DNA from: Xylanibacter ruminicola 23
Lineage (GTDB): Bacteria > Bacteroidota > Bacteroidia > Bacteroidales > Bacteroidaceae
Direction of reading: 5' to 3'
DNA length: 32,000 nt
NCBI RefSeq assembly: GCF_000025925.1
Contig: NC_014033.1
Span: 660,001 to 692,000, forward strand
Shown one piece after another: positions 2,912 through 30,444 of the stretch (its first letter is position 1; every line of letters starts with the position of its first letter). The notes under the pieces were generated by a model. The model ran no database searches. It saw nothing but the letters and a program-made list of their open reading frames with translations, and was not told the DNA's origin. The position numbers and the translations under genes were made by a program.

Positions 2912-2953
2912 AATAAGCTATCCCCGCCAACCAGCGGGGATAGCTTATTTTCT
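2912..2953. terminator. Bidirectional intrinsic terminator between convergent trpS and the radical SAM gene
   Basis: Perfect 16-bp stem aataagctatccccgc / gcggggatagcttatt (2912-2927 and 2934-2949) with loop caacca, followed by a T-run on the plus strand. It overlaps the stop codon of the minus-strand gene. Confidence 0.75.
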
Positions 2954-4450
2954 AATCTTCTTACGAAACTCCGGCACTTGCTCTGTGGGCATCATCAGCA
3001 GGCATTCTTTGATGCTTTTTCCACCGAGTGGATCGATGCCTTGTTCCATTTGTCGGCATAGCTCCATTCGGATTTTGGCTGTCTGGCATACGTCGCCTTG
3101 TATCTCTTTCAGCGTGAAGGTGCCGTCGGGCTTCTTTTCCAAAAACTCGCCTGCATAACAAGGTGTATTGCAGTACTGGCAATAGTCGTGCCTGCCACAT
3201 GCCGTAAACGTCCGTTTTTGGTCAGTTTGAAGCATCTGCATGCGCTGGGCACTCAGGATGGTCTCCTTGAGTGATGAGTGATGCAAATTGCCATACGTGA
3301 TAGGAATATTACTGCATCCTCTTACCACTCCACTAGGCGAAATAGTTATTAGTCTGTTGGCATTACAGGGGAATCCGCTAGCGCTGCCAAATGCATAACC
3401 GTCGGCCTTCCCATCTTTAGGGATATGATTTTTGGCCAGCGGGTCCATCAGGATGATGCGCAGGGCCTCAGGCCGTGTCTGCAGATGCTCAATCATCGAC
3501 ACATCACCATCGGCACCAGGATTTAGCGTACATGAAACCTCTATCTCAGCCCCCAGTTCATAAGCTATCTTGCGTACCCCGTAATAACTGCGGGTGTTCA
3601 GACGGAAAACGGGCGTTTTAATGTTCAGGGGTACAGGCCACGCTGAGAGTTCGCGAAGCACATTCATCGACTGTTCCCATGAGCCTCGCCTACGCGTAAT
3701 CTGGTCGTGTACCTCAGCATCAGTGCTATAGATCGACACGCTGAGTTGTAGCAGCCCCATGCGGGCTATTCGGCGTATCTTCTCTTTGGTGTTTATGGCT
3801 TGGGCGTTGGTAAACAGGTTTACCGCCAGGTTACACTTGTGCATATAGTCGAGAATATCCCAGCAGTGTGGGTAGCTGAACGGGTCGCCGCCAGTAACAG
3901 TTACTTCAGGTATCCCTAAATCTACGGCTTCATCAATGATACGTTTGTAGTCGTCCATTGTCAGCATATCAGGGCGCAAGCGGTGCTCCTCATGTAAGTC
4001 GCTGCGTGCAGCCCCTTCGTTGAAGCAGTGCAGGCATCGCTCACTGCAGGCATAGGTCAGTTCAAAGTTTATCGAAACCCGTTGTTCCTGGGGTAGTGTG
4101 TCCCAATAGTCGGCTGCTGGCTCACTGCCGTTATTACTGATACATGGTGGAAAGTCCTTGCGGTATTGCTGCCACTCATCGTCGCTCCACACATGGTCGT
4201 GCACCAGTCCGATAGGTAACAGCTGTTGGCAGCAGAACTCCTCTACTTGTTCCTCTTCAGTGCCTGTCACCCAAGCGATATGTGCTGTGTTGATGGGACT
4301 TTCTCTCTCGCCCGCCAGCACCTCTTTGATCAGCAGGGCCGACACGTCATCGAATGTATAGCAAGTGCCGCGGGCCGTGTTATACATCACTGCTCTCTGT
4401 GCATGGCGATTGAATGCGCCACAGGTATATAGCGGTCGGATAAAGGTCAT
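2945..4450 (-). CDS. Radical SAM / SPASM-domain enzyme with a PqqD-like (RRE-like) N-terminal extension; putative peptide maturase
   Basis: CxxxCxxC motif (ACSERCLHC). The C-terminal Cys-rich region has CNANRLITISPSGVVRGC (Gx4C) and CGRHDYCQYCNTPC, plus later Cys residues, typical of SPASM auxiliary clusters. The N-terminal ~130 aa resembles PqqD-like peptide-binding domains. The ORF track starts at 4522. I prefer the ATG at 4450, which forms an ATGA start/stop overlap with the upstream MATE gene. Confidence 0.85.
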   Translation of the reverse strand: MTFIRPLYTCGAFNRHAQRAVMYNTARGTCYTFDDVSALLIKEVLAGERESPINTAHIAWVTGTEEEQVEEFCCQQLLPIGLVHDHVWSDDEWQQYRKDFPPCISNNGSEPAADYWDTLPQEQRVSINFELTYACSERCLHCFNEGAARSDLHEEHRLRPDMLTMDDYKRIIDEAVDLGIPEVTVTGGDPFSYPHCWDILDYMHKCNLAVNLFTNAQAINTKEKIRRIARMGLLQLSVSIYSTDAEVHDQITRRRGSWEQSMNVLRELSAWPVPLNIKTPVFRLNTRSYYGVRKIAYELGAEIEVSCTLNPGADGDVSMIEHLQTRPEALRIILMDPLAKNHIPKDGKADGYAFGSASGFPCNANRLITISPSGVVRGCSNIPITYGNLHHSSLKETILSAQRMQMLQTDQKRTFTACGRHDYCQYCNTPCYAGEFLEKKPDGTFTLKEIQGDVCQTAKIRMELCRQMEQGIDPLGGKSIKECLLMMPTEQVPEFRKKIRK

Positions 4451-6210
4451 ACCTTGTTTCGTTGATAATTCAGATAGATACAGTTGATACCGTTCATGTA
4501 CTTGTGATTGAGATTCTTGCACAAGCGCGACAGAATGGCTCGTCGCAGGTTATTCTCATCTATATCTGCAACTTCTTCATCACTATATTTATAAATCGGA
4601 TTTCGCAGAGGACCTTTGCTCTTGACTACCGCTGTGAATTCCTTTTCCTTGTCGATGATGCGCACATCAAAGGTCTCATTCGTCTTGGAATTCTGGGGCT
4701 CATGGGTCTCCACAATCTCGTAAAGCAACTCCTCCAGGGCAATATCCACAGCCATACCGTCGGGCAGTTCGCAAGCCTCAATAAATGGACGTATCTTGCC
4801 CAGAAATGTCGCTACCCCCTCGTTGGTATAAGGTATAGAGAAGGTTACAGCCGGGTTGGATGGTACTGTGTTTTGCAATGTAGGCCAACTATACAAGGAG
4901 TTCTTGCGATGAACCACATAAGCCATGCCCAGGATTACCAGCAGCAGGAGCCAGGAGGTGGTGGGCAGGGTATACCATAGGAGCTGAGGGGTATAGAAGG
5001 CCATCAGGGCAATAATGCCGATGGTGCCCAGGTTGGTCACTATTTCTATCCATCTGCATAGTTTATGATGTCCCTGTACAAAATAAAGCACGCTGAGCGT
5101 CTCGGATATGGCATTAGGTAGAAATGCCAGACTCAGAAGTCGGAACGGGGTGCGACATTCTTCTATCAGCGTGTCGTCGGCTCCAAATATCCTGGCCAGC
5201 AAATCAGGGAAAAGGAATATCAGCAGGCTAACCGTCAGCATGACTCCTGTCAACAGGCGGAATATGCGCCGTGTGAGCATGCGGAAGCTGTCGAAGTCCT
5301 CTTCGCCCAGCAGGATGCCGCCGATATTGCTGATGGCTGTATTCGAGCCAGACAATGCCAGCATACAGATGGCATTAATCTGGAAGTAGATGGTAAAGAT
5401 ATACATGCCGTCGGCACCAAGTTTGTTCACTACCAGTGAGTTCATGGTAAAAGACATGGCAGGCATAAAGAGTGCTGATATCAGCATGGGCAGTCCAATA
5501 GAAAAGCACTCACGATACTGCTTGATGCTACATATCTTCGCAGGATGCCTGAGGCGGAATATCTTACTGTTTTTGCGCAGATAGCCTAACAGCGAGGTGA
5601 ATGCGAGCAAGTTACTGATACCTGTGGCCAACGAAGCACCTGCCATCCCCATATCAAACACACCGCACAGCAGTATGTCAAACCCTACATTGAGTATCTG
5701 TGAGATGATGATGCGTCGGGTGATGAGTCGCGGACTACCGTTTGTGATGACATAGGATAAAGGTACACCGAATACAGCTGCTACGAAGATGGCAAACATG
5801 TCGGCATGAATATATGGCCGCAGCATGGGTAGCAGACGCTGGTCGTCGGTAATCAAGCCTGCCACGATATCGAGGAAAGGCAACATGAGAACAATCACCA
5901 AAAGCGCGGAGGCGATAACATAGTACAGATGATTATTGAACACACGGTTCACCTGGTCGTAGTTTTGGGCACCAATGCCTCGAGCGCTCAGAAATCTGGC
6001 CCCGGCACTCATCATTCCTATAATGATGAACATACAACTCGCAATGGGTTGCCAGATACGTACAATTGACAGCGCATCAGGTGAAACGAGATGAGATACG
6101 ACAACAGAGTCGGTAAGTCCGCCAAGTTGTAGTATCAGGGACGACATGACGGTCGCCAGGAAAAACGAACCGAACATGTTCTTCAATACATATTCATTAC
6201 GCTGCATCAT
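4447..6210 (-). CDS. MATE/MOP-family efflux transporter with an extra ~140-aa C-terminal soluble domain
   Basis: The first ~440 aa are a polytopic hydrophobic MATE-like sequence. The C-terminal tail (WPTLQNTV...NYQRNKV) is hydrophilic and absent from ordinary ~450-aa MATE proteins. It overlaps the upstream gene by 14 nt. Confidence 0.8.
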   Translation of the reverse strand: MMQRNEYVLKNMFGSFFLATVMSSLILQLGGLTDSVVVSHLVSPDALSIVRIWQPIASCMFIIIGMMSAGARFLSARGIGAQNYDQVNRVFNNHLYYVIASALLVIVLMLPFLDIVAGLITDDQRLLPMLRPYIHADMFAIFVAAVFGVPLSYVITNGSPRLITRRIIISQILNVGFDILLCGVFDMGMAGASLATGISNLLAFTSLLGYLRKNSKIFRLRHPAKICSIKQYRECFSIGLPMLISALFMPAMSFTMNSLVVNKLGADGMYIFTIYFQINAICMLALSGSNTAISNIGGILLGEEDFDSFRMLTRRIFRLLTGVMLTVSLLIFLFPDLLARIFGADDTLIEECRTPFRLLSLAFLPNAISETLSVLYFVQGHHKLCRWIEIVTNLGTIGIIALMAFYTPQLLWYTLPTTSWLLLLVILGMAYVVHRKNSLYSWPTLQNTVPSNPAVTFSIPYTNEGVATFLGKIRPFIEACELPDGMAVDIALEELLYEIVETHEPQNSKTNETFDVRIIDKEKEFTAVVKSKGPLRNPIYKYSDEEVADIDENNLRRAILSRLCKNLNHKYMNGINCIYLNYQRNKV

Positions 6211-7576
6211 ATTTTAATCTATAAACTGCCACACCTATCATCGTGAACTTGTCCTTCATAAAAGTGTAGGCATCCGTGTTTGAAAGTTCTAATCTATTTC
6301 CTGTGGCATGGTAGAAGTGCAGCCTGCCGCTGATCCATTTGGCTATCAGCAGATGCTTAATCTCCACACCTCTTGCCCAGGTATGCTGATCACACACCAC
6401 TGCCATGATGTCGCCATCGCGAATCACGCCGAGCTCCGAATCCTGCGGCATGTTCAGCAGTTCACGGGGGATATAGGTAAAGCGCACGCGCTGCTGCTGG
6501 CGAAGGGCGATGGCCTTGTAGTTGTCTTCGTCGTCCATCTGTGGGCGGAACAGGTATTTGTTTCTGGTCATATAATTCAGTTGCAGGTCCATCAGTCCCG
6601 TAAAAGGAAAGGCGGGCTCGTCGGGGCTGATACGTTCCACGAATCCCTCTTTGATGGCCGACTGCATGATCCAGGTAAAGTAATGATTGCGGGTGGCAAA
6701 CGATACGACGCCGTCCTGATAATGCATGCGCCGGTAGTAATCCTTCAGGTCTGCCAGCGTGGTGCGCCCGTCTCTGTAGCACAGTGCCAGTGCCAGTACA
6801 TCTTCTATCACGGTGGTACAATCCACATGACTAAGGCTCACCATCAGATGTTCTTCTTCCATCGGCTGAGTGAATTCTGTTGCAACGCCCTCCATCAGTT
6901 GTTGGAAGAAGTATTCAGTCGGCGGCAACGATTGATCCACGTTTTTCATCGCACGTTGCAGTATCTGCTCGTTTTGCGCGTCAAACTGCTGCTCGTTGCG
7001 TCGCAGGCGGCGGAGTAGTCTGTTATGGAAAAAACTTGTTGAGATACGGCTGAGAGGCGTCCTGATACAGAACACCAACCATAACGAGCGCAGCGCTGCC
7101 AACTGTTCGCGCCAGTAATAGGGGTTGCTCTTCACCTTCTCATAGTCGCTGATGTCAATGCCCCAGGCATCATAACCCAGCCATCGGGCAATGCGCACCG
7201 AACGGGCGATATGAAAGCTGCTGGTCAGGATGTAGAATCGGGTTTGCTTGAAAAACAAATTCATATCCCATAATGAGCGGAAGGTGTTATAGCCACAGGA
7301 GTCGAGCACAAAGCGCTCTTCAGGAATATGATATTCCTCTACCAGCGTGCGGTAGATGACGGTAGTGTCAGCACGACAACCGGAGATGTAGAACAGCCAG
7401 TCGGGATAGGTATTGGCCAGGATGCTCACCAGCCTCACCCGCAACTGCAGGATAGGCGACAGCGAGTTGTCGGGACGCAGTTTGGCACCTAACACCAGGC
7501 AGACTTTTACGCCTTCAGGCACCTGTTTGCCCTTCAGCCCCTGCAACCTGTCATGATGTAGTTTAACATACCGCAT
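6197..7576 (-). CDS. Two-domain protein: N-terminal DUF218 (YdcF/SanA/ElyC-like) fused to a C-terminal DUF1460-like (amidase/papain-like fold) domain
   Basis: The N-terminus (KVCLVLGAKLRPDNSLSP...ILTSSFHIARS) resembles DUF218. The C-terminal half (SLSHVDCTTVIEDVLALA...HLLIAKW) resembles DUF1460. Assignment is from memory of these families and is not searched. Confidence 0.65.
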   Translation of the reverse strand: MRYVKLHHDRLQGLKGKQVPEGVKVCLVLGAKLRPDNSLSPILQLRVRLVSILANTYPDWLFYISGCRADTTVIYRTLVEEYHIPEERFVLDSCGYNTFRSLWDMNLFFKQTRFYILTSSFHIARSVRIARWLGYDAWGIDISDYEKVKSNPYYWREQLAALRSLWLVFCIRTPLSRISTSFFHNRLLRRLRRNEQQFDAQNEQILQRAMKNVDQSLPPTEYFFQQLMEGVATEFTQPMEEEHLMVSLSHVDCTTVIEDVLALALCYRDGRTTLADLKDYYRRMHYQDGVVSFATRNHYFTWIMQSAIKEGFVERISPDEPAFPFTGLMDLQLNYMTRNKYLFRPQMDDEDNYKAIALRQQQRVRFTYIPRELLNMPQDSELGVIRDGDIMAVVCDQHTWARGVEIKHLLIAKWISGRLHFYHATGNRLELSNTDAYTFMKDKFTMIGVAVYRLKYDAA

Positions 7577-8093
7577 GGTCCGATTTATGTATTTTTTCTT
7601 CTATCTCATGAAGAAGAATGATCTGTTCTCTGACACTGGCAGCAAACGCATCACTGTTTTCCAGAATGTAGGCCTTCAGTTCGGCGATGTCCTGACATTT
7701 CAGATGGTGTATCACCATGAAATGCAACCCACACCCCTCGGCATGATGACCGGCACCGTCGAAAAAGGTTACTCTGCCGTCAGTAATATCTGAGTTAGAG
7801 CGTGCCCACAAGTGGAATATCCTGTTAATCGCGTTCGTCAGCGGATTGTCGGAATGGCAATAGCAAACCAGTTCGCCTGGATGCTCTTCCAGATATTGTG
7901 TAATCACCGCCACAATCATGCGCCCCACTTCCTTGTCAGGCGCACCGCCACGCATCCCGTCGGCAAGCCTGAGCACAAAGTAGAGCACGCGATGACTGCC
8001 AATCTCTGCCACCTCAATAAAATGAAGCACATAAAGACGACTCGCGGCATTGTAAAACTCCACCGCCGAATCGCCTCTTTTCCTTAACACCAA
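7563..8093 (-). CDS. Hypothetical protein (176 aa); first long gene of the operon
   Basis: The ORF overlaps the next gene by 14 nt. The only upstream in-frame starts are TTG (8093) and GTG (8090), and the first ATG is 46 codons in, so the start is uncertain. I recognise no family. Confidence 0.55.
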   Translation of the reverse strand: MVLRKRGDSAVEFYNAASRLYVLHFIEVAEIGSHRVLYFVLRLADGMRGGAPDKEVGRMIVAVITQYLEEHPGELVCYCHSDNPLTNAINRIFHLWARSNSDITDGRVTFFDGAGHHAEGCGLHFMVIHHLKCQDIAELKAYILENSDAFAASVREQIILLHEIEEKIHKSDHAVC

Positions 8094-8168
8094 TTTGGAT
8101 ATGGTGTTAATCTTCGCTATTCCTTCTTCAGATAGAGAATTCGTTGTTCTTGACTATATAAATAATAC

Positions 8169-8315
8169 CTATTTCTTATTCGTTGTTGCACAAAAACTTA
8201 CACGATCTCCATCATCTAACGTTCTCTGCACATAGTCGTCGAGATTCAGCGCCTGAGCGGTAATAATACTAACAGGTGATTTTCTGATTGCAAATGGGTT
8301 GTTTTTCTTTTCCAT
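8169..8315 (-). CDS. Unannotated 48-aa ORF; candidate precursor peptide for the downstream radical SAM operon
   Basis: My translation is MEKKNNPFAIRKSPVSIITAQALNLDDYVQRTLDDGDRVSFCATTNKK, with stop TAG at 8171-8169. It lies 61 nt downstream of a consensus -7 box and 75 nt upstream of the 176-aa gene. It is below the ORF-track length cutoff. Confidence 0.4.
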   Translation of the reverse strand: MEKKNNPFAIRKSPVSIITAQALNLDDYVQRTLDDGDRVSFCATTNKK

Positions 8316-8375
8316 ATTCTTCAAATGTTTAAGTTAAATAATAATATTCAAAAGCTTGTGCTTTAATTATTTGGG

Positions 8376-8383
8376 CAAAGATA
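8376..8383 (-). promoter_or_regulatory. Bacteroidetes -7 box (TATCTTTG) heading the small ORF and five-gene operon
   Basis: The reverse complement of caaagata is an exact TAnnTTTG match. It is the only such box between trmD and the operon. Confidence 0.5.
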
Positions 8384-22983: not shown

Positions 22984-23099
22984 CGCCCAGAATAAGCATC
23001 AAGAGTGGCATAATGCACACCAACCGGCCTACACAGAATCGTTGGCAGCGGTGGTAAAAGGATGCGAGTGAATGTTTAATCCACTAAAGATAAACGATT

Positions 23100-23519
23100 A
23101 TGGAAATCAAGAAGATTGAAAAGAGTGACTTTGTAATGTATCCACGTATGCAACATCGTGGGTTGGAGTTCAGGCATGTAGAACGTGATGCGTTTAAGGC
23201 AGAGTTGCGCCATGTTGAGGAACATGGTGACTATTGGCTGATTCATCAGCAGTCGAAGCCTCATGTTGTGGCCCACGTCCAATTACCCAAGACGGAAGCA
23301 GAGTTTGATAATATCCTTGGCTGGTGTTTGGGACAAAACCATTGGTGCGAGTACATTGAGGGGGATTTCTCTTTCCTCTGTGTTATAGCAGGCTTCAATG
23401 CTGCAGAACTCACTCCTAAATACCCAGACTTTATCAGCGAACGTGTTTATGCTCTTGGTGATGCTACTCGCTGGTGGTATGAGTATGGAAAGGATGTTCT
23501 GATACAAAAGACAACATAA
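23100..23519 (+). CDS. Hypothetical protein (139 aa)
   Basis: ORF with an ATG start behind its own promoter. No family is recognised. Confidence 0.55.
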   Translation: MEIKKIEKSDFVMYPRMQHRGLEFRHVERDAFKAELRHVEEHGDYWLIHQQSKPHVVAHVQLPKTEAEFDNILGWCLGQNHWCEYIEGDFSFLCVIAGFNAAELTPKYPDFISERVYALGDATRWWYEYGKDVLIQKTT

Positions 23520-23599: not shown

Positions 23600-25288
23600 A
23601 TGGCAATATTTGATTTTCTAAAATCCCACGAAGAAAAAGTAAACGAGAGAAAAGCAGAAATAGCAGCTTTGCAGCAACAAGTTGTTTCTTTACGTGACGA
23701 GGTGGCTTCTGAGGAGAAAGAAAAAGAAGAGTTAAGAAGTCAGATTGTTGAATTGAAGAATCTTGTTGTGGCTCAAAAGAATGAACTATATGATTTGCAA
23801 CAGGACAAAGAAAAAACAAAGAAGCAAGTTGATAGCCTTCATGAAAGATATGAAAAGTTGCATGCTTTGTTAACGAGATCAACCAGAAAATTAAATTGTA
23901 TGGAATCTTCTGATGAATTCTTGTTATTTGACGTTGGATCTCCATATTTGGTTGCGTTGGATGAAGTAGATTATGAAGAATTGTGTAAATATCACAATCT
24001 TAGAGAAGAAAATCATTCTTATTATGATAAGAAGAAGCAAAGAGAGGATGAATTACATGCCATAGAGCTGAAAATTGAAGATGCAAACAAAGAACTAACC
24101 AATCTTCGAGAGGAATTGGTAAAACAGCGTGATATTAATTATGCCTATGAAATAAACAATATTAAAGAACAAACTAGTGAATATATTCATGAATTGAATG
24201 ACATAAAAGCAGATATTAATAGTTATCTGAAAAATCATAAAGACAAGATTCGCTTAGAGGTAATACATGAAATATACCAAAGAGCAAATCTTTGTGAAGA
24301 TGAGGCTTTGAGAAATTTGCGAGAAACTATTGACGGTGTTAATATTGACCAGATACAACTTGCTTTGGATTTAAAGAAAATGTTGTTGAAACCTCCATAT
24401 AAAGTTAATCCACAGGAATGGACTTTTGCTGAAATATATTTGTGTAATTTGTTAAATGAATTTGCACAACTCAATATTGTTAAAATCATAAAAGAAATGA
24501 AAAACTCAGATTGGGATACGATTAAAGTCAAAATAGGTTCTCTTGTTAATATTTTAGAATTGCGTATGATTGGAACGGGATTTCGAATAGATCCATCATA
24601 TGGAAAGAATCTATTCAATTATATGGAAGCAAAGTATTTATATATACAAAAGCAACAGATTGAACGAGAAAAGGAGCGAGAAGAACGTGAGGCACAACGT
24701 GAATATGAGCGTGCTATAAAAAAGGCTCTAAAAGATGAAGAAAAGGCACAAGAGGCTCTTGAAAAGAAGAAAAGAGAAATGGCAGAAGCGCAGACTCAGG
24801 AAAAGATACAGAAATTGCAGGAACAGATAAAGGGACTGGAGAATGCTCTTGTTGAAGCTCGTGAACTAAGAGAGAGAGCAATGAGTATGGCACAACAAAC
24901 TAAGATAGGCTATGTTTATGTTATCTCTAATATAGGTTCTTTTGGAAAAGATGTCTATAAGATTGGAATGACTCGTCGATTAGACCCGATGGAGCGTATT
25001 ATGGAATTAAGTAACGCTAGCGTTCCATTCCCATTTGACGTACACACCTTTATATATAGTGAGGATGCACCAGCATTGGAGGCAGACTTACATAGAAGAT
25101 TCGATGCCAAGAAGGTTAACTCTATAAACTATCGCAAAGAATATTTCAATGTGACGTTAGATGAAATAAAAGCGGCATTGAAAGAGAAAGGAGTTGATGC
25201 AAACTTTGTAGACGAACCTGATGCATTCCAATACAGAGAAAGCCTTATGAAAAATCGCGATGGTATTCTCTCTACAATACAGCAGTGA
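23600..25288 (+). CDS. Coiled-coil DUF4041-type protein with a C-terminal T5orf172 / MUG113 (GIY-YIG-superfamily) domain
   Basis: The N-terminal and central regions are long E/K-rich heptad coiled coil. The C-terminus (GYVYVISNIGSFGKDVYKIGMTRRLDPMERIMELSNASVPFPFDVH...YFNVTLDEI) is the T5orf172 signature. Confidence 0.8.
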   Translation: MAIFDFLKSHEEKVNERKAEIAALQQQVVSLRDEVASEEKEKEELRSQIVELKNLVVAQKNELYDLQQDKEKTKKQVDSLHERYEKLHALLTRSTRKLNCMESSDEFLLFDVGSPYLVALDEVDYEELCKYHNLREENHSYYDKKKQREDELHAIELKIEDANKELTNLREELVKQRDINYAYEINNIKEQTSEYIHELNDIKADINSYLKNHKDKIRLEVIHEIYQRANLCEDEALRNLRETIDGVNIDQIQLALDLKKMLLKPPYKVNPQEWTFAEIYLCNLLNEFAQLNIVKIIKEMKNSDWDTIKVKIGSLVNILELRMIGTGFRIDPSYGKNLFNYMEAKYLYIQKQQIEREKEREEREAQREYERAIKKALKDEEKAQEALEKKKREMAEAQTQEKIQKLQEQIKGLENALVEARELRERAMSMAQQTKIGYVYVISNIGSFGKDVYKIGMTRRLDPMERIMELSNASVPFPFDVHTFIYSEDAPALEADLHRRFDAKKVNSINYRKEYFNVTLDEIKAALKEKGVDANFVDEPDAFQYRESLMKNRDGILSTIQQ

Positions 25289-30095: not shown

Positions 30096-30161
30096 TGTGT
30101 TTTTCATAGTATTAGATTTAAGGTTAACAAAGGTTAGGGTCACAGCGGTGACCCTTTTTTT
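30096..30161 (+). ncRNA. Candidate ~65-nt small RNA (orphan promoter plus intrinsic terminator, no ORF)
   Basis: -33 TTTG (30060-30063), a 19-nt spacer, then -7 TATCTTTG (30083-30090). There is no ATG before the hairpin gggtcac agcg gtgaccc (30137-30154) and its T7 run. The 5' end is estimated, not observed. Confidence 0.3.
30137..30161 (+). terminator. Intrinsic terminator (7-bp GC-rich stem plus T7)
   Basis: gggtcac / gtgaccc stem, loop agcg, then ttttttt. It could also terminate the MBL hydrolase transcript. Confidence 0.7.
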
Positions 30162-30444
30162 ATATCCATCTTCTGCGTTTGCCCTTATCTTTGCCAAACA
30201 GCGAGCTGTAGCCTTTCATGAGTTTGCGTACCAGTAGAATAGCATCTACAGCCATAAAACCATTGCTTACCAGGCTGGCAATATAGTCGCCCTTCGACAC
30301 CTCGTCGCGCTTCAGGAATGTCTGGTTCCAAAGCGACGAAACCTTGTCCTTATCTTTCTGGATCTCGTCAAGCAAAGCATCCTTGCGCTCGCGAATCTCT
30401 TCGAGCGTGCAAAAATCGGTGGTTGTTTTCTTGTTGTACGGCAT
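30160..30444 (-). CDS. Hypothetical protein (94 aa); third gene of the YtxH trio
   Basis: ORF 5 nt downstream of the holin-like gene. No family is recognised. Confidence 0.55.
   Translation of the reverse strand: MPYNKKTTTDFCTLEEIRERKDALLDEIQKDKDKVSSLWNQTFLKRDEVSKGDYIASLVSNGFMAVDAILLVRKLMKGYSSLFGKDKGKRRRWI

Follow-up and report, generated by a model that had tools for sequence, protein, structure and literature searches.

What does an operon of five genes in Xylanibacter ruminicola 23 make, in which a 48-codon open reading frame (ORF) and an orphan gene are joined to genes for a DUF218/AmiA-like fusion, a MATE-family transporter and a radical S-adenosylmethionine (rSAM) enzyme? The operon lies in a stretch of 32,000 nucleotides (nt; contig NC_014033.1 of assembly GCF_000025925.1, positions 660,001 to 692,000), hereafter the window, whose numbering is used throughout. 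A preliminary description of this DNA had read it as a locus for a ribosomally made, post-translationally modified peptide (RiPP). This reading is well supported by the analysis below, in which each of the tests proposed for refuting it was run and none did so: sequence comparison and structure prediction make it very probable that a small RiPP is produced, modified and exported by this operon. What is new here is the precursor family and the accessory set of an rSAM-RiPP cluster, found in no curated database or searched paper; the system is not categorically new, because its overall logic is the familiar RiPP one.

A probable precursor peptide and its candidate maturase

The small ORF, counted here as 48 amino acids (aa) from an ATG (the program that listed the ORFs began it further upstream, with the TTG at 8324, and so counted 51 aa), recurs in the relatives of the operon. 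Among 79 related loci searched, it was found wherever the remaining cluster is present on the contig, and it is kept in 15 related loci and additionally in L080. Two to three paralogues per locus are seen in four of these (L002, L003, L004 and L017). The preliminary description had made its proposal depend on conservation of this ORF in syntenic loci, and what emerged is a conserved ORF with paralogues and purifying selection. The family shares a leader of the form NPFxIRKSPxxIIxAQAxxLDDYVx(R/K), most positions of which are 78-100% conserved; no leader contains the Gly-Gly motif, whose absence from the window precursor had been remarked on earlier. The tails that follow the leader differ sharply between paralogues (TLDDGDRVSFCATTNKK, GSWESGCVKSGVCPSSAKK, GEFGTDFHCRSGVLDGTSKK, LIPICA, AGNPGRACPSSDRD and others), and most of these putative cores have a single Cys.

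Examination of the leader block (24 codons, 19 distinct alleles) reveals a ratio of nonsynonymous to synonymous polymorphism (pN/pS) of 0.27, with 1607 differences at third codon positions versus 574 at first and 626 at second positions. Given this low ratio and the third-position bias, the small ORF appears to be translated and under selection. Furthermore, a public collection of 5.8 billion proteins holds 241 clusters of the precursor, labelled only as 'hypothetical protein'. The commonest core in the family (type A, 112 members) has the consensus T-L-D-D-x-D-R-V-S-F-C-A-T-T-N, with Cys11 and Thr13 at 100% and Asp4 at 97%. No model in Pfam or NCBIfam matches the window precursor. As judged by its sequence conservation, the small ORF is a genuine protein-coding gene whose product joins a conserved leader of 31 aa to a short core containing Cys, and this pattern of leader and core is the standard signature of a RiPP precursor. 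The locus thus presents what generically marks a RiPP system, namely a short precursor with a conserved leader and a variable core beside a modifying enzyme.

The candidate modifying enzyme is the rSAM protein encoded by the last gene of the operon, taken here as 501 aa from an ATG (the program-made list has 525 aa from a GTG, an alternative upstream start). It contains the core motif C135-x3-C139-x2-C142 (CX3CX2C) and, in a putative auxiliary-cluster region towards its C-terminus, seven further cysteines (C362, C379, C418, C424, C427, C431 and C455). All seven are invariant in a set of 20 sequences; across 41 family members, the sister clade described below included, down to 21% identity, C135, C139, C142, C362, C379, C418, C427 and C431 are invariant, as is the G-x4-C379 motif, with C424 and C455 conserved in at least 90%. 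Several members of the family carry a precomputed match to the SPASM domain (PF13186), which typically has about seven Cys for two auxiliary [4Fe-4S] clusters. The protein has no hydrophobic segment and is therefore presumed to be cytoplasmic. At the N-terminus, Cys10 of an RPxxTCG motif is also conserved in at least 90% of the 41 members; a Phe replaces it in a relocated orphan rSAM encoded beside mutY in Prevotella sp. ne3005 (L012 9986-11503).

The N-terminal region was examined by means of a structure model and a sequence profile because hidden Markov model (HMM) comparison gave no direct PqqD match for the window protein. In the AlphaFold2 model (mean confidence, pLDDT, 90.3), residues 9-77 are predicted at pLDDT 93-98 to form three strands (9-14, 19-24 and 29-34) followed by three helices (35-46, 55-62 and 66-77). 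This is the topology of PqqD and of the RiPP recognition element (RRE), and an assignment of the domain as RRE-like and leader-binding is well supported by the model; the PqqD/RRE-type fold on which the preliminary description had also staked its proposal is thus predicted. Foldseek searches with the same model recovered SkfB, SuiB and CteB as the top matches, all of which are peptide maturases. The alignments to SuiB and CteB extend over 430-517 columns, and thus include the N-terminal RRE domains of those enzymes. A profile of the N-terminal domain gave weak matches to the lasso-peptide RREs TbiB1 (E 0.025) and TfuB1 (E 0.67), and two distant members of the family match the Pfam PqqD model at 2.8e-6.

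Sequence comparisons of the whole protein point in the same direction. Its best matches among sequences in the PDB are PqqE (6e-15) and SkfB (1.6e-12), and its best 25 matches in NCBIfam, all of them far below their cut-offs, are among the named ones mostly peptide maturases (MftC, AlbA, PqqE, SkfB, WgkB and StsB). The preliminary description had raised membership in a characterised non-peptide clade, such as the anaerobic sulfatase maturases (anSMEs), as grounds for abandoning its reading. Those 25 matches include no anSME, and Foldseek lists anSMEcpe no higher than rank 19; a sulfatase was seen neither in the genes on either side of the operon nor in the called genes of the syntenic ne3005 locus; and the window enzyme carries a predicted RRE-like domain at its N-terminus. 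Together, the sequence and the predicted structure, for which SPASM enzymes are the top matches, indicate that it is a radical SAM protein of the peptide-maturase type, probably of the SPASM subgroup, with an N-terminal RRE-like domain.

Accessory proteins, gene linkage and a sister clade

The 176-aa protein belongs to no family in Pfam, NCBIfam or PADLOC, and it too has no hydrophobic segment, which suggests a cytoplasmic location. Its family is small, with 36 matches among 1.84 billion representative proteins. The four most distant full-length relatives were looked up, and each lies beside Cys-rich peptides with Gly-Gly (GG) leaders and/or an rSAM maturase. These relatives are all free-standing and come from metagenomic clusters (L081, 1164-3521; L082; L083; L084) with GG-leader peptides such as MSKEELKVKPVNQELANDDLKNVHGG followed by YQNDECPSGVSDGNGGFKKVKICYSNS. 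The neighbouring maturases are a 656-aa protein of the rSAM/SPASM type in L081, an end-cut rSAM of 594 aa in L084 and the apparent C-terminal end of an rSAM in L083. The C-terminal ~150 residues of the rSAMs in L081 and L084 themselves resemble the 176-aa protein (hhalign, for the L081 protein: probability 75%, E 2.5e-5). Given that the distant relatives recur in rSAM/GG-leader clusters, the 176-aa family appears to be a recurrent accessory of rSAM peptide maturases and, among the members looked up, is by its genomic context specific to RiPP clusters.

The AlphaFold2 model of the 176-aa protein (pLDDT 83) gave weak Foldseek matches to GNAT/AAC(6') proteins (probability 0.92-0.97, TM-score 0.38-0.41, none at E<=1e-3); as these are weak and Pfam gave no match, we refrain from identifying it as a GNAT acetyltransferase. 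Upstream of the TTG start of the gene, 19 codons (window 8094-8153, minus strand) encode ...SEEGIAKINTISK, matching an N-terminal extension that longer homologues possess (MNTVSEEGIAKINT.SK). At the position of the homologues' ATG both the window and ne3005 have ACG, and there is no canonical start before the TTG at 8093. The TTG is a tentative start: either translation begins at a non-canonical codon, or the extension was lost recently.

The preliminary description had recognized a DUF218/DUF1460-like fusion from the translation alone, and HMM searches place both domains above their cut-offs: DUF218 (PF02698) at 35.5 bits against 27.6 and the AmiA-like domain, formerly DUF1460 (PF07313), at 70.8 bits against 27. 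The protein aligns to PDB entries 2P1G (E 3e-21) and 4H4J/4Q5K. A passage in PMC10318531, citing Xu et al. 2014, describes DUF1460/AmiA-like domains as NlpC/P60 amidases with a Cys-His-His triad. Cys253, His408 and His423, retained in 14/14 full-length orthologues, fit this triad as mapped by alignment. The C-terminal half is thus a clear member of the family of AmiA/DUF1460 amidases typified by these Bacteroides structures. The window protein departs from them in its fusion to DUF218, in the lack of an export signal and in its placement in an rSAM-peptide operon, from which we infer a substrate other than a muropeptide. It has neither a hydrophobic segment nor a signal peptide or membrane anchor, which argues for a cytoplasmic protein, and its amidase domain is a candidate leader peptidase.

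The transporter, which had been described as a MATE exporter with an extra domain, matches PF01554 with 103.7 bits in two stretches (cut-off 24.9), and no other transporter family, including the Wzx and MurJ families, was recovered at E<=0.1 in the Pfam scan. Against TIGR00797 it scores 126 bits, which is below the cut-off of 147. No hydrophobic segment is seen past residue 428, whereas residues 12-428 contain at least nine strong ones, which leaves a soluble C-terminal extension. Orthologues cover residues 1-586 of the window protein in all loci, and the extension is conserved in every one; its weak match to HATPase_c_2 (anti-sigma/GHKL-like) has an E of 0.025. The HMM searches thus placed the Radical_SAM, MatE, DUF218 and AmiA-like domains of the operon all above their gathering scores.

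The five ORFs all run in the same direction on the minus strand (window 2945-8315), between a predicted Bacteroidetes-type -7 box and a 17-bp hairpin (Table 1). The last four overlap by 14 nt (7563-7576), 14 nt (6197-6210) and 4 nt (4447-4450, as ATGA), and this layout, like the box and the terminator-like hairpin, bears out the preliminary description. The box lies in the intergenic gap between trmD and the precursor gene and is the sole minus-strand TAnnTTTG between 2945 and 8430; ne3005 has TACATTTG at the equivalent place. We estimate a chance of about 4% for a correctly oriented match in the 115-nt gap. As the motif is short and the window contains 37 matches versus 22.8 expected, the box is suggestive only, and taken alone it is weak evidence for a promoter. 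The hairpin (2949..2912) separates the rSAM gene from the convergent trpS and is common to both gene ends; with its T-rich flanks on both strands it is probably a bidirectional intrinsic terminator. A scan with Rfam found no RNA family within the operon.

Table 1. Predicted features of the operon and its products, in window coordinates
Feature	Position	Strand	Basis or remark
Hairpin, 17 pairs (8 G-C), loop of 4	2912..2949	.	T-rich runs on both strands
rSAM gene, maturase candidate, 501 aa	2945..4450	-	PF04055 75.2 bits, cut-off 29.5; ATG overlaps the MATE stop as ATGA
RRE-like N-terminal domain of rSAM, aa 1 to ~80	~4211..4450	-	Predicted structure
MATE gene, candidate exporter, 587 aa, membrane part to ~aa 428	4447..6210	-	PF01554; domain by HMM
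Soluble C-terminal extension of MATE protein, ~159 aa	~4450..4926	-	End of hydrophobic segments
Fusion gene, 459 aa: DUF218 (aa 25-137) and AmiA-like (DUF1460) NlpC/P60 cysteine amidase (aa 237-441)	6197..7576	-	Pfam; domains by HMM
176-aa gene, orphan family	7563..8093	-	TTG start; coding may reach upstream to ~8153
Precursor gene, 48 aa: MEKKNNPFAIRKSPVSIITAQALNLDDYVQR (leader), then TLDDGDRVSFCATTNKK (core)	8169..8315	-	Conservation; counted from ATG
Proposed core, aa 32-48	8172..8222	-	Boundary inferred from end of conservation
Invariant Cys42 codon	8190..8192	-	Core position 11
Proposed leader, aa 1-31	8223..8315	-	Boundary inferred from end of conservation
Predicted Bacteroidetes-type -7 box, TATCTTTG	8376..8383	-	Fits TAnnTTTG; 61 nt 5' of precursor ATG

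The system is confined to a narrow group of rumen Prevotella. The closest genome is that of Prevotella sp. MA2016 (L001), whose rSAM is 98% identical; MA2016, ne3005 (L012) and tc2-28 (L019) are isolates that we take to belong to the Hungate1000 set. The order peptide, 176-aa protein, fusion, MATE and rSAM is found in the window and eight other loci, so that the conservation of order and small ORF which the preliminary description had asked for was observed, though in several arrangements. In L017 the genes for the fusion, rSAM and MATE follow one another, and the opposite strand bears the 176-aa gene along with two peptide genes. L018 has peptide, 176-aa protein, rSAM and MATE, with no fusion nearby. 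In strain ne3005 the trmD/trpS site, as in the window, holds the genes for the peptide, 176-aa protein, fusion and MATE, and an intact rSAM gene neighbors mutY on a different contig. Across at least four gene orders, linkage is kept between peptide, 176-aa protein, MATE and rSAM; such retention through rearrangements argues for one functional unit. By this comparison of neighborhoods, these four constitute a linked gene set in which the fusion is usually included.

The remaining arrangement, seen in L002 and L003, is a tandem duplication, with peptide-MATE-rSAM followed by peptide-peptide-176-fusion-MATE, which gives each locus two MATE genes and three peptides. A simple reordering of L002-L004 with rSAM first had been considered and was discarded once full mapping revealed this duplication. 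The duplicated region (L002 7612-10004; L003 26-2412) includes a 94-aa ORF directly after trmD, which is a remnant of the C-terminal domain of MATE, as well as a 25-codon remnant of the 176-aa gene; these remnants point to recent recombination within the locus.

A sister clade of rSAM proteins, 30-37% identical to the window enzyme and with the same N-terminal domain, was detected in 56 loci from many families of Bacteroidales. These loci (L024-L079) are without the other four genes of the operon. They have a conserved ORF of their own, encoding a 34-aa peptide with two Cys (MKVDLxVSxxSxV..CPKxxExxCGIMYR), 62-268 nt downstream of the rSAM gene. A strict pattern recovers it in 45 of the 56 loci and inspection by eye in nearly all, from Prevotellaceae, Bacteroidaceae, Rikenellaceae, Muribaculaceae and others. 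Behind it there often lies a gene for a 283-aa protein (32 loci), a Ser/Thr-kinase-like protein (15) or an M42 aminopeptidase (10). In pairing an rSAM with a small Cys peptide of its own, this clade serves as an independent replicate of what is seen in the window. Scans of both peptide families, the 283-aa partner and the MATE extension against Pfam and NCBIfam recovered no family, with only sub-threshold matches (a chance-level SSH-motif at E 0.008, below its cut-off, and the weak HATPase_c_2 match mentioned above), and the sister peptide family is apparently undescribed. A relationship between the 283-aa protein and the 176-aa family was discarded (hhalign probability 0.2). Two of the sister loci, L046 and L055, bear the labels Faecalibacterium prausnitzii and Butyricicoccaceae, all others being Bacteroidales; these two labels likely reflect mis-binning of contigs.

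Proposed pathway and competing explanations

In light of the above connections, we propose a pathway in which the leader would dock as a strand on the RRE, and the rSAM enzyme would then take hydrogen from the core and cross-link it. By analogy with the sactipeptide and ranthipeptide maturases SkfB, CteB and PapB, the most likely product would be a thioether between the invariant Cys (core position 11) and another core residue, such as an Asp of the DDxD motif or Thr13; a thioether from this Cys is our best guess on the chemistry. The 176-aa protein may act as a partner of the rSAM or as a domain for a second step, because the rSAM of related clusters appears to carry a similar region at its C-terminus. 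The cytoplasmic NlpC/P60-type cysteine amidase domain could remove the leader, perhaps by cleavage C-terminal to leader position 31, where a basic residue is conserved, and the MATE pump would export a product of ~1.8 kDa or smaller.

Several observations weigh against this RiPP reading or parts of it. The preliminary description had called the rSAM an rSAM/SPASM enzyme with a PqqD-like N-terminal extension; the rSAM domain and, in the model, the RRE-type fold stand, whereas the SPASM match of the window protein (17.7 bits) falls below its cut-off of 21.5 and the HMM gave no PqqD match, so that the RRE assignment stands on predicted structure and weak profile matches. MATE pumps usually carry small molecules, which makes a 17-residue cargo unusual. 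The fold of the 176-aa protein has no convincing match. The fusion is the least constant member of the cluster, being absent from the L018 neighborhood, and the rSAM gene lies away from the operon in ne3005 and L020; the parts are thus not all obligatory or linked. Every core type holds at least one Cys, a count drawn from related and hence non-independent sequences, and a single shared cross-linking chemistry is not obvious because cores such as LIPICA are without Asp, Glu or Thr acceptors.

An alternative is a peptide-derived small molecule or cofactor made in the manner of pyrroloquinoline quinone (PQQ) or mycofactocin, in which the core would be cross-linked, a fragment around the Cys excised by peptidases and the resulting small molecule exported by the MATE pump. 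PqqE and MftC are among the nearest relatives of known function, small molecules are the typical cargo of such pumps, the strong conservation of the type-A core at Cys11, Thr13 and Asp4 would be fitting in a cofactor precursor, and an amidase is present in the operon and an M42 aminopeptidase in 10 sister-clade loci. Yet unrelated paralogue cores behind one leader are characteristic of peptide natural products rather than of precursors of cofactors, the operon contains no redox enzyme partners, and the PqqE and MftC scores (64 versus 381 and 85 versus 265) are far below cut-off. The restriction of the system to a narrow group of rumen Prevotella does not track a metabolic trait either, and we consider a cofactor pathway improbable. 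Still harder to credit is the idea that the small ORF is no substrate, being either a chance ORF or a regulatory leader (attenuator), with the rSAM acting elsewhere: the ORF is indeed short, without a database family and directly behind the putative promoter, but its conservation at the amino-acid level (pN/pS as above), the independent calling of its 241 clusters by many pipelines, the presence of paralogues at different positions, and in L017 on the opposite strand, and the conserved peptide that the sister clade has beside its own rSAM have largely refuted it, and we accord it next to no likelihood.

Along the lines of the competing explanation in the preliminary description, one may picture an envelope or peptidoglycan operon, in which DUF218, the domain resembling a MurNAc-L-Ala amidase and a flippase of the MOP superfamily would act on a lipid-linked or muropeptide intermediate, with the peptide and the rSAM as mere neighbors or regulators. 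It is favored by the description of DUF1460/AmiA-like domains as NlpC/P60 amidases in the passage of PMC10318531 cited above, by a weak NCBIfam match of the DUF218 part to SanA (E 0.0012) and by the arrangement in ne3005, where the three genes stand together without an adjacent rSAM. Nevertheless, the peptide gene still heads the ne3005 operon, and where the fusion is missing, as in L018, MATE and rSAM are adjacent. SanA and ElyC, unlike the window fusion, have a signal peptide or membrane anchor. The transporter matches MatE and no polysaccharide or lipid II flippase family, the 176-aa family recurs only in rSAM-peptide clusters, and several rearrangements have left the genes in the company of the peptide and rSAM. 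The MatE-only match, the cytoplasmic prediction for the fusion and this lasting association weaken the envelope explanation to the point where we regard it as very improbable.

Preferring thus the synthesis of a small RiPP, we also advance, with rather more doubt than confidence, a bolder joint reading of the parts. The operon would represent a new RiPP class abundant in rumen Prevotella, whose rSAM installs an uncatalogued cross-link on a single-Cys, Asp-rich core of 15-17 residues. The 176-aa protein would be a new rSAM-partner domain, free-standing here and apparently within the rSAM in GG-leader clusters, and a cytoplasmic NlpC/P60 amidase carrying a fused DUF218 domain would take off the leader. 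A second new class, distributed across animal-gut Bacteroidales, would be represented by the sister clade and its 34-aa CPKxxExxCGIMYR peptides. To our knowledge, no known RiPP pathway employs a protease of the cytoplasmic NlpC/P60 amidase-DUF218 type.

Although Bacteroidales dominate among the Gram-negative bacteria of gut and rumen, the modified peptides known from this order are very few. The locus offers a culturable entry point to a peptide family of which rumen metagenomes contain hundreds of variants, and adds a previously unnoticed accessory family recurring with rSAM maturases as well as a sister system in Bacteroidales of the gut. Should the chemistry or the leader protease prove to be new, these enzymes could enter the toolbox of peptide engineering, and the system may reveal how the abundant Prevotella of the rumen compete or signal.

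Comparison with known systems and other features of the window

In NCBIfam (June 2026) and Pfam, sequence comparison reaches no curated family cut-off for any named RiPP class, and the earlier statement that the locus matches no named rSAM-RiPP class holds against both databases and the searched literature. The closest resemblance in maturase build is to the sactipeptides (AlbA, SkfB) and ranthipeptides (CteB/SCIFF, PapB), whose combination of an RRE-like domain, an rSAM core and a Cys-rich domain for auxiliary clusters the window enzyme appears to share; SkfB and CteB rank with its best structural matches, and the window cores contain Cys and are Asp-rich. PapB, according to a passage in PMC9413430, joins Cys to Asp or Glu. 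In contrast, the scores for the sactipeptide maturases are far below cut-off (AlbA 66.9 versus 850, StsB 49.5 versus 625, SkfB 42.9 versus 300), the window precursor matches no SCIFF model (six-Cys TIGR03973), and the SCIFF maturase TIGR03974 is not among the best 25 matches of the rSAM. Furthermore, the window has the 176-aa family, the DUF218/AmiA-like fusion and a MATE protein instead of the ABC or C39 transporters of those systems.

The same parts list of a short precursor, an rSAM/SPASM maturase and a MATE transporter is seen in the tryglysin (Trp-Gly-Lys, WGK) RaS-RiPP system of streptococci (WgkA-D), for which NCBIfam holds models of the maturase WgkB and the MATE protein WgkD. The resemblance extends to the parts list only: the window proteins score 49.2 versus 650 for WgkB and 35.7 versus 510 for WgkD, the precursor has no Trp-Gly-Lys motif and the phylum is a different one. 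The tryglysin system presumably also lacks the MATE C-terminal domain and the two further accessory proteins found in the window.

The GG-Bacteroidales clusters belong to the same order and include those in which the 176-aa relatives lie beside ...DDLKNVxGG leaders. They differ in that the window precursor is without Gly-Gly and has an unrelated leader, and the window rSAM is of a different lineage, TIGR04148 not being among its best 25 matches; the best matches of the L081 rSAM are maturases of the TIGR04463, FlmE and CefB types. PqqE/PqqD and MftC/MftB provide the nearest solved or curated relatives of the rSAM core and a PqqD-type leader recognition. The scores set them apart (PqqE 64.4 versus 381, MftC 85.1 versus 265), as do the fused RRE, the multiple divergent cores and the exporter of the window system. 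Moreover, PqqA has a Glu/Tyr motif and MftA ends in Val-Tyr, neither of which is present in the window precursor. A role in defence was considered and dropped, since PADLOC gave generic viperin-like matches to the rSAM and nothing for the other three proteins.

The motif strings of both peptide families had no match in a text search of the literature, and neither the operon, its peptide nor the 176-aa family is described in the papers searched, which include PMC10352776, PMC10288494, PMC13289728, PMC12710340 and PMC9576775. For the Hungate1000 rumen genomes, an antiSMASH survey (PMC13289728) reported next to no ranthipeptides in Bacteroidota, and the system goes unmentioned there. Similarly, a BAGEL4 survey (PMC10352776) and the antiSMASH rules (PMC13289728) give few RiPP types in Bacteroidales beyond generic rSAM matches.

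Elsewhere in the window, Rfam recovered two RNAs unrelated to the operon: a SAM-I/IV riboswitch (54.5 bits) at 22991-23101 on the plus strand, upstream of a 562-aa ORF (23600..25288), and the Bacteroidetes small RNA FopS (79.2 bits) at 30097-30164, also on the plus strand. Between 20000 and 25000 the G+C content drops to 0.33-0.41 from ~0.45-0.52 elsewhere, with a strong positive GC skew at 23-25 kb, and this segment may have been horizontally acquired.

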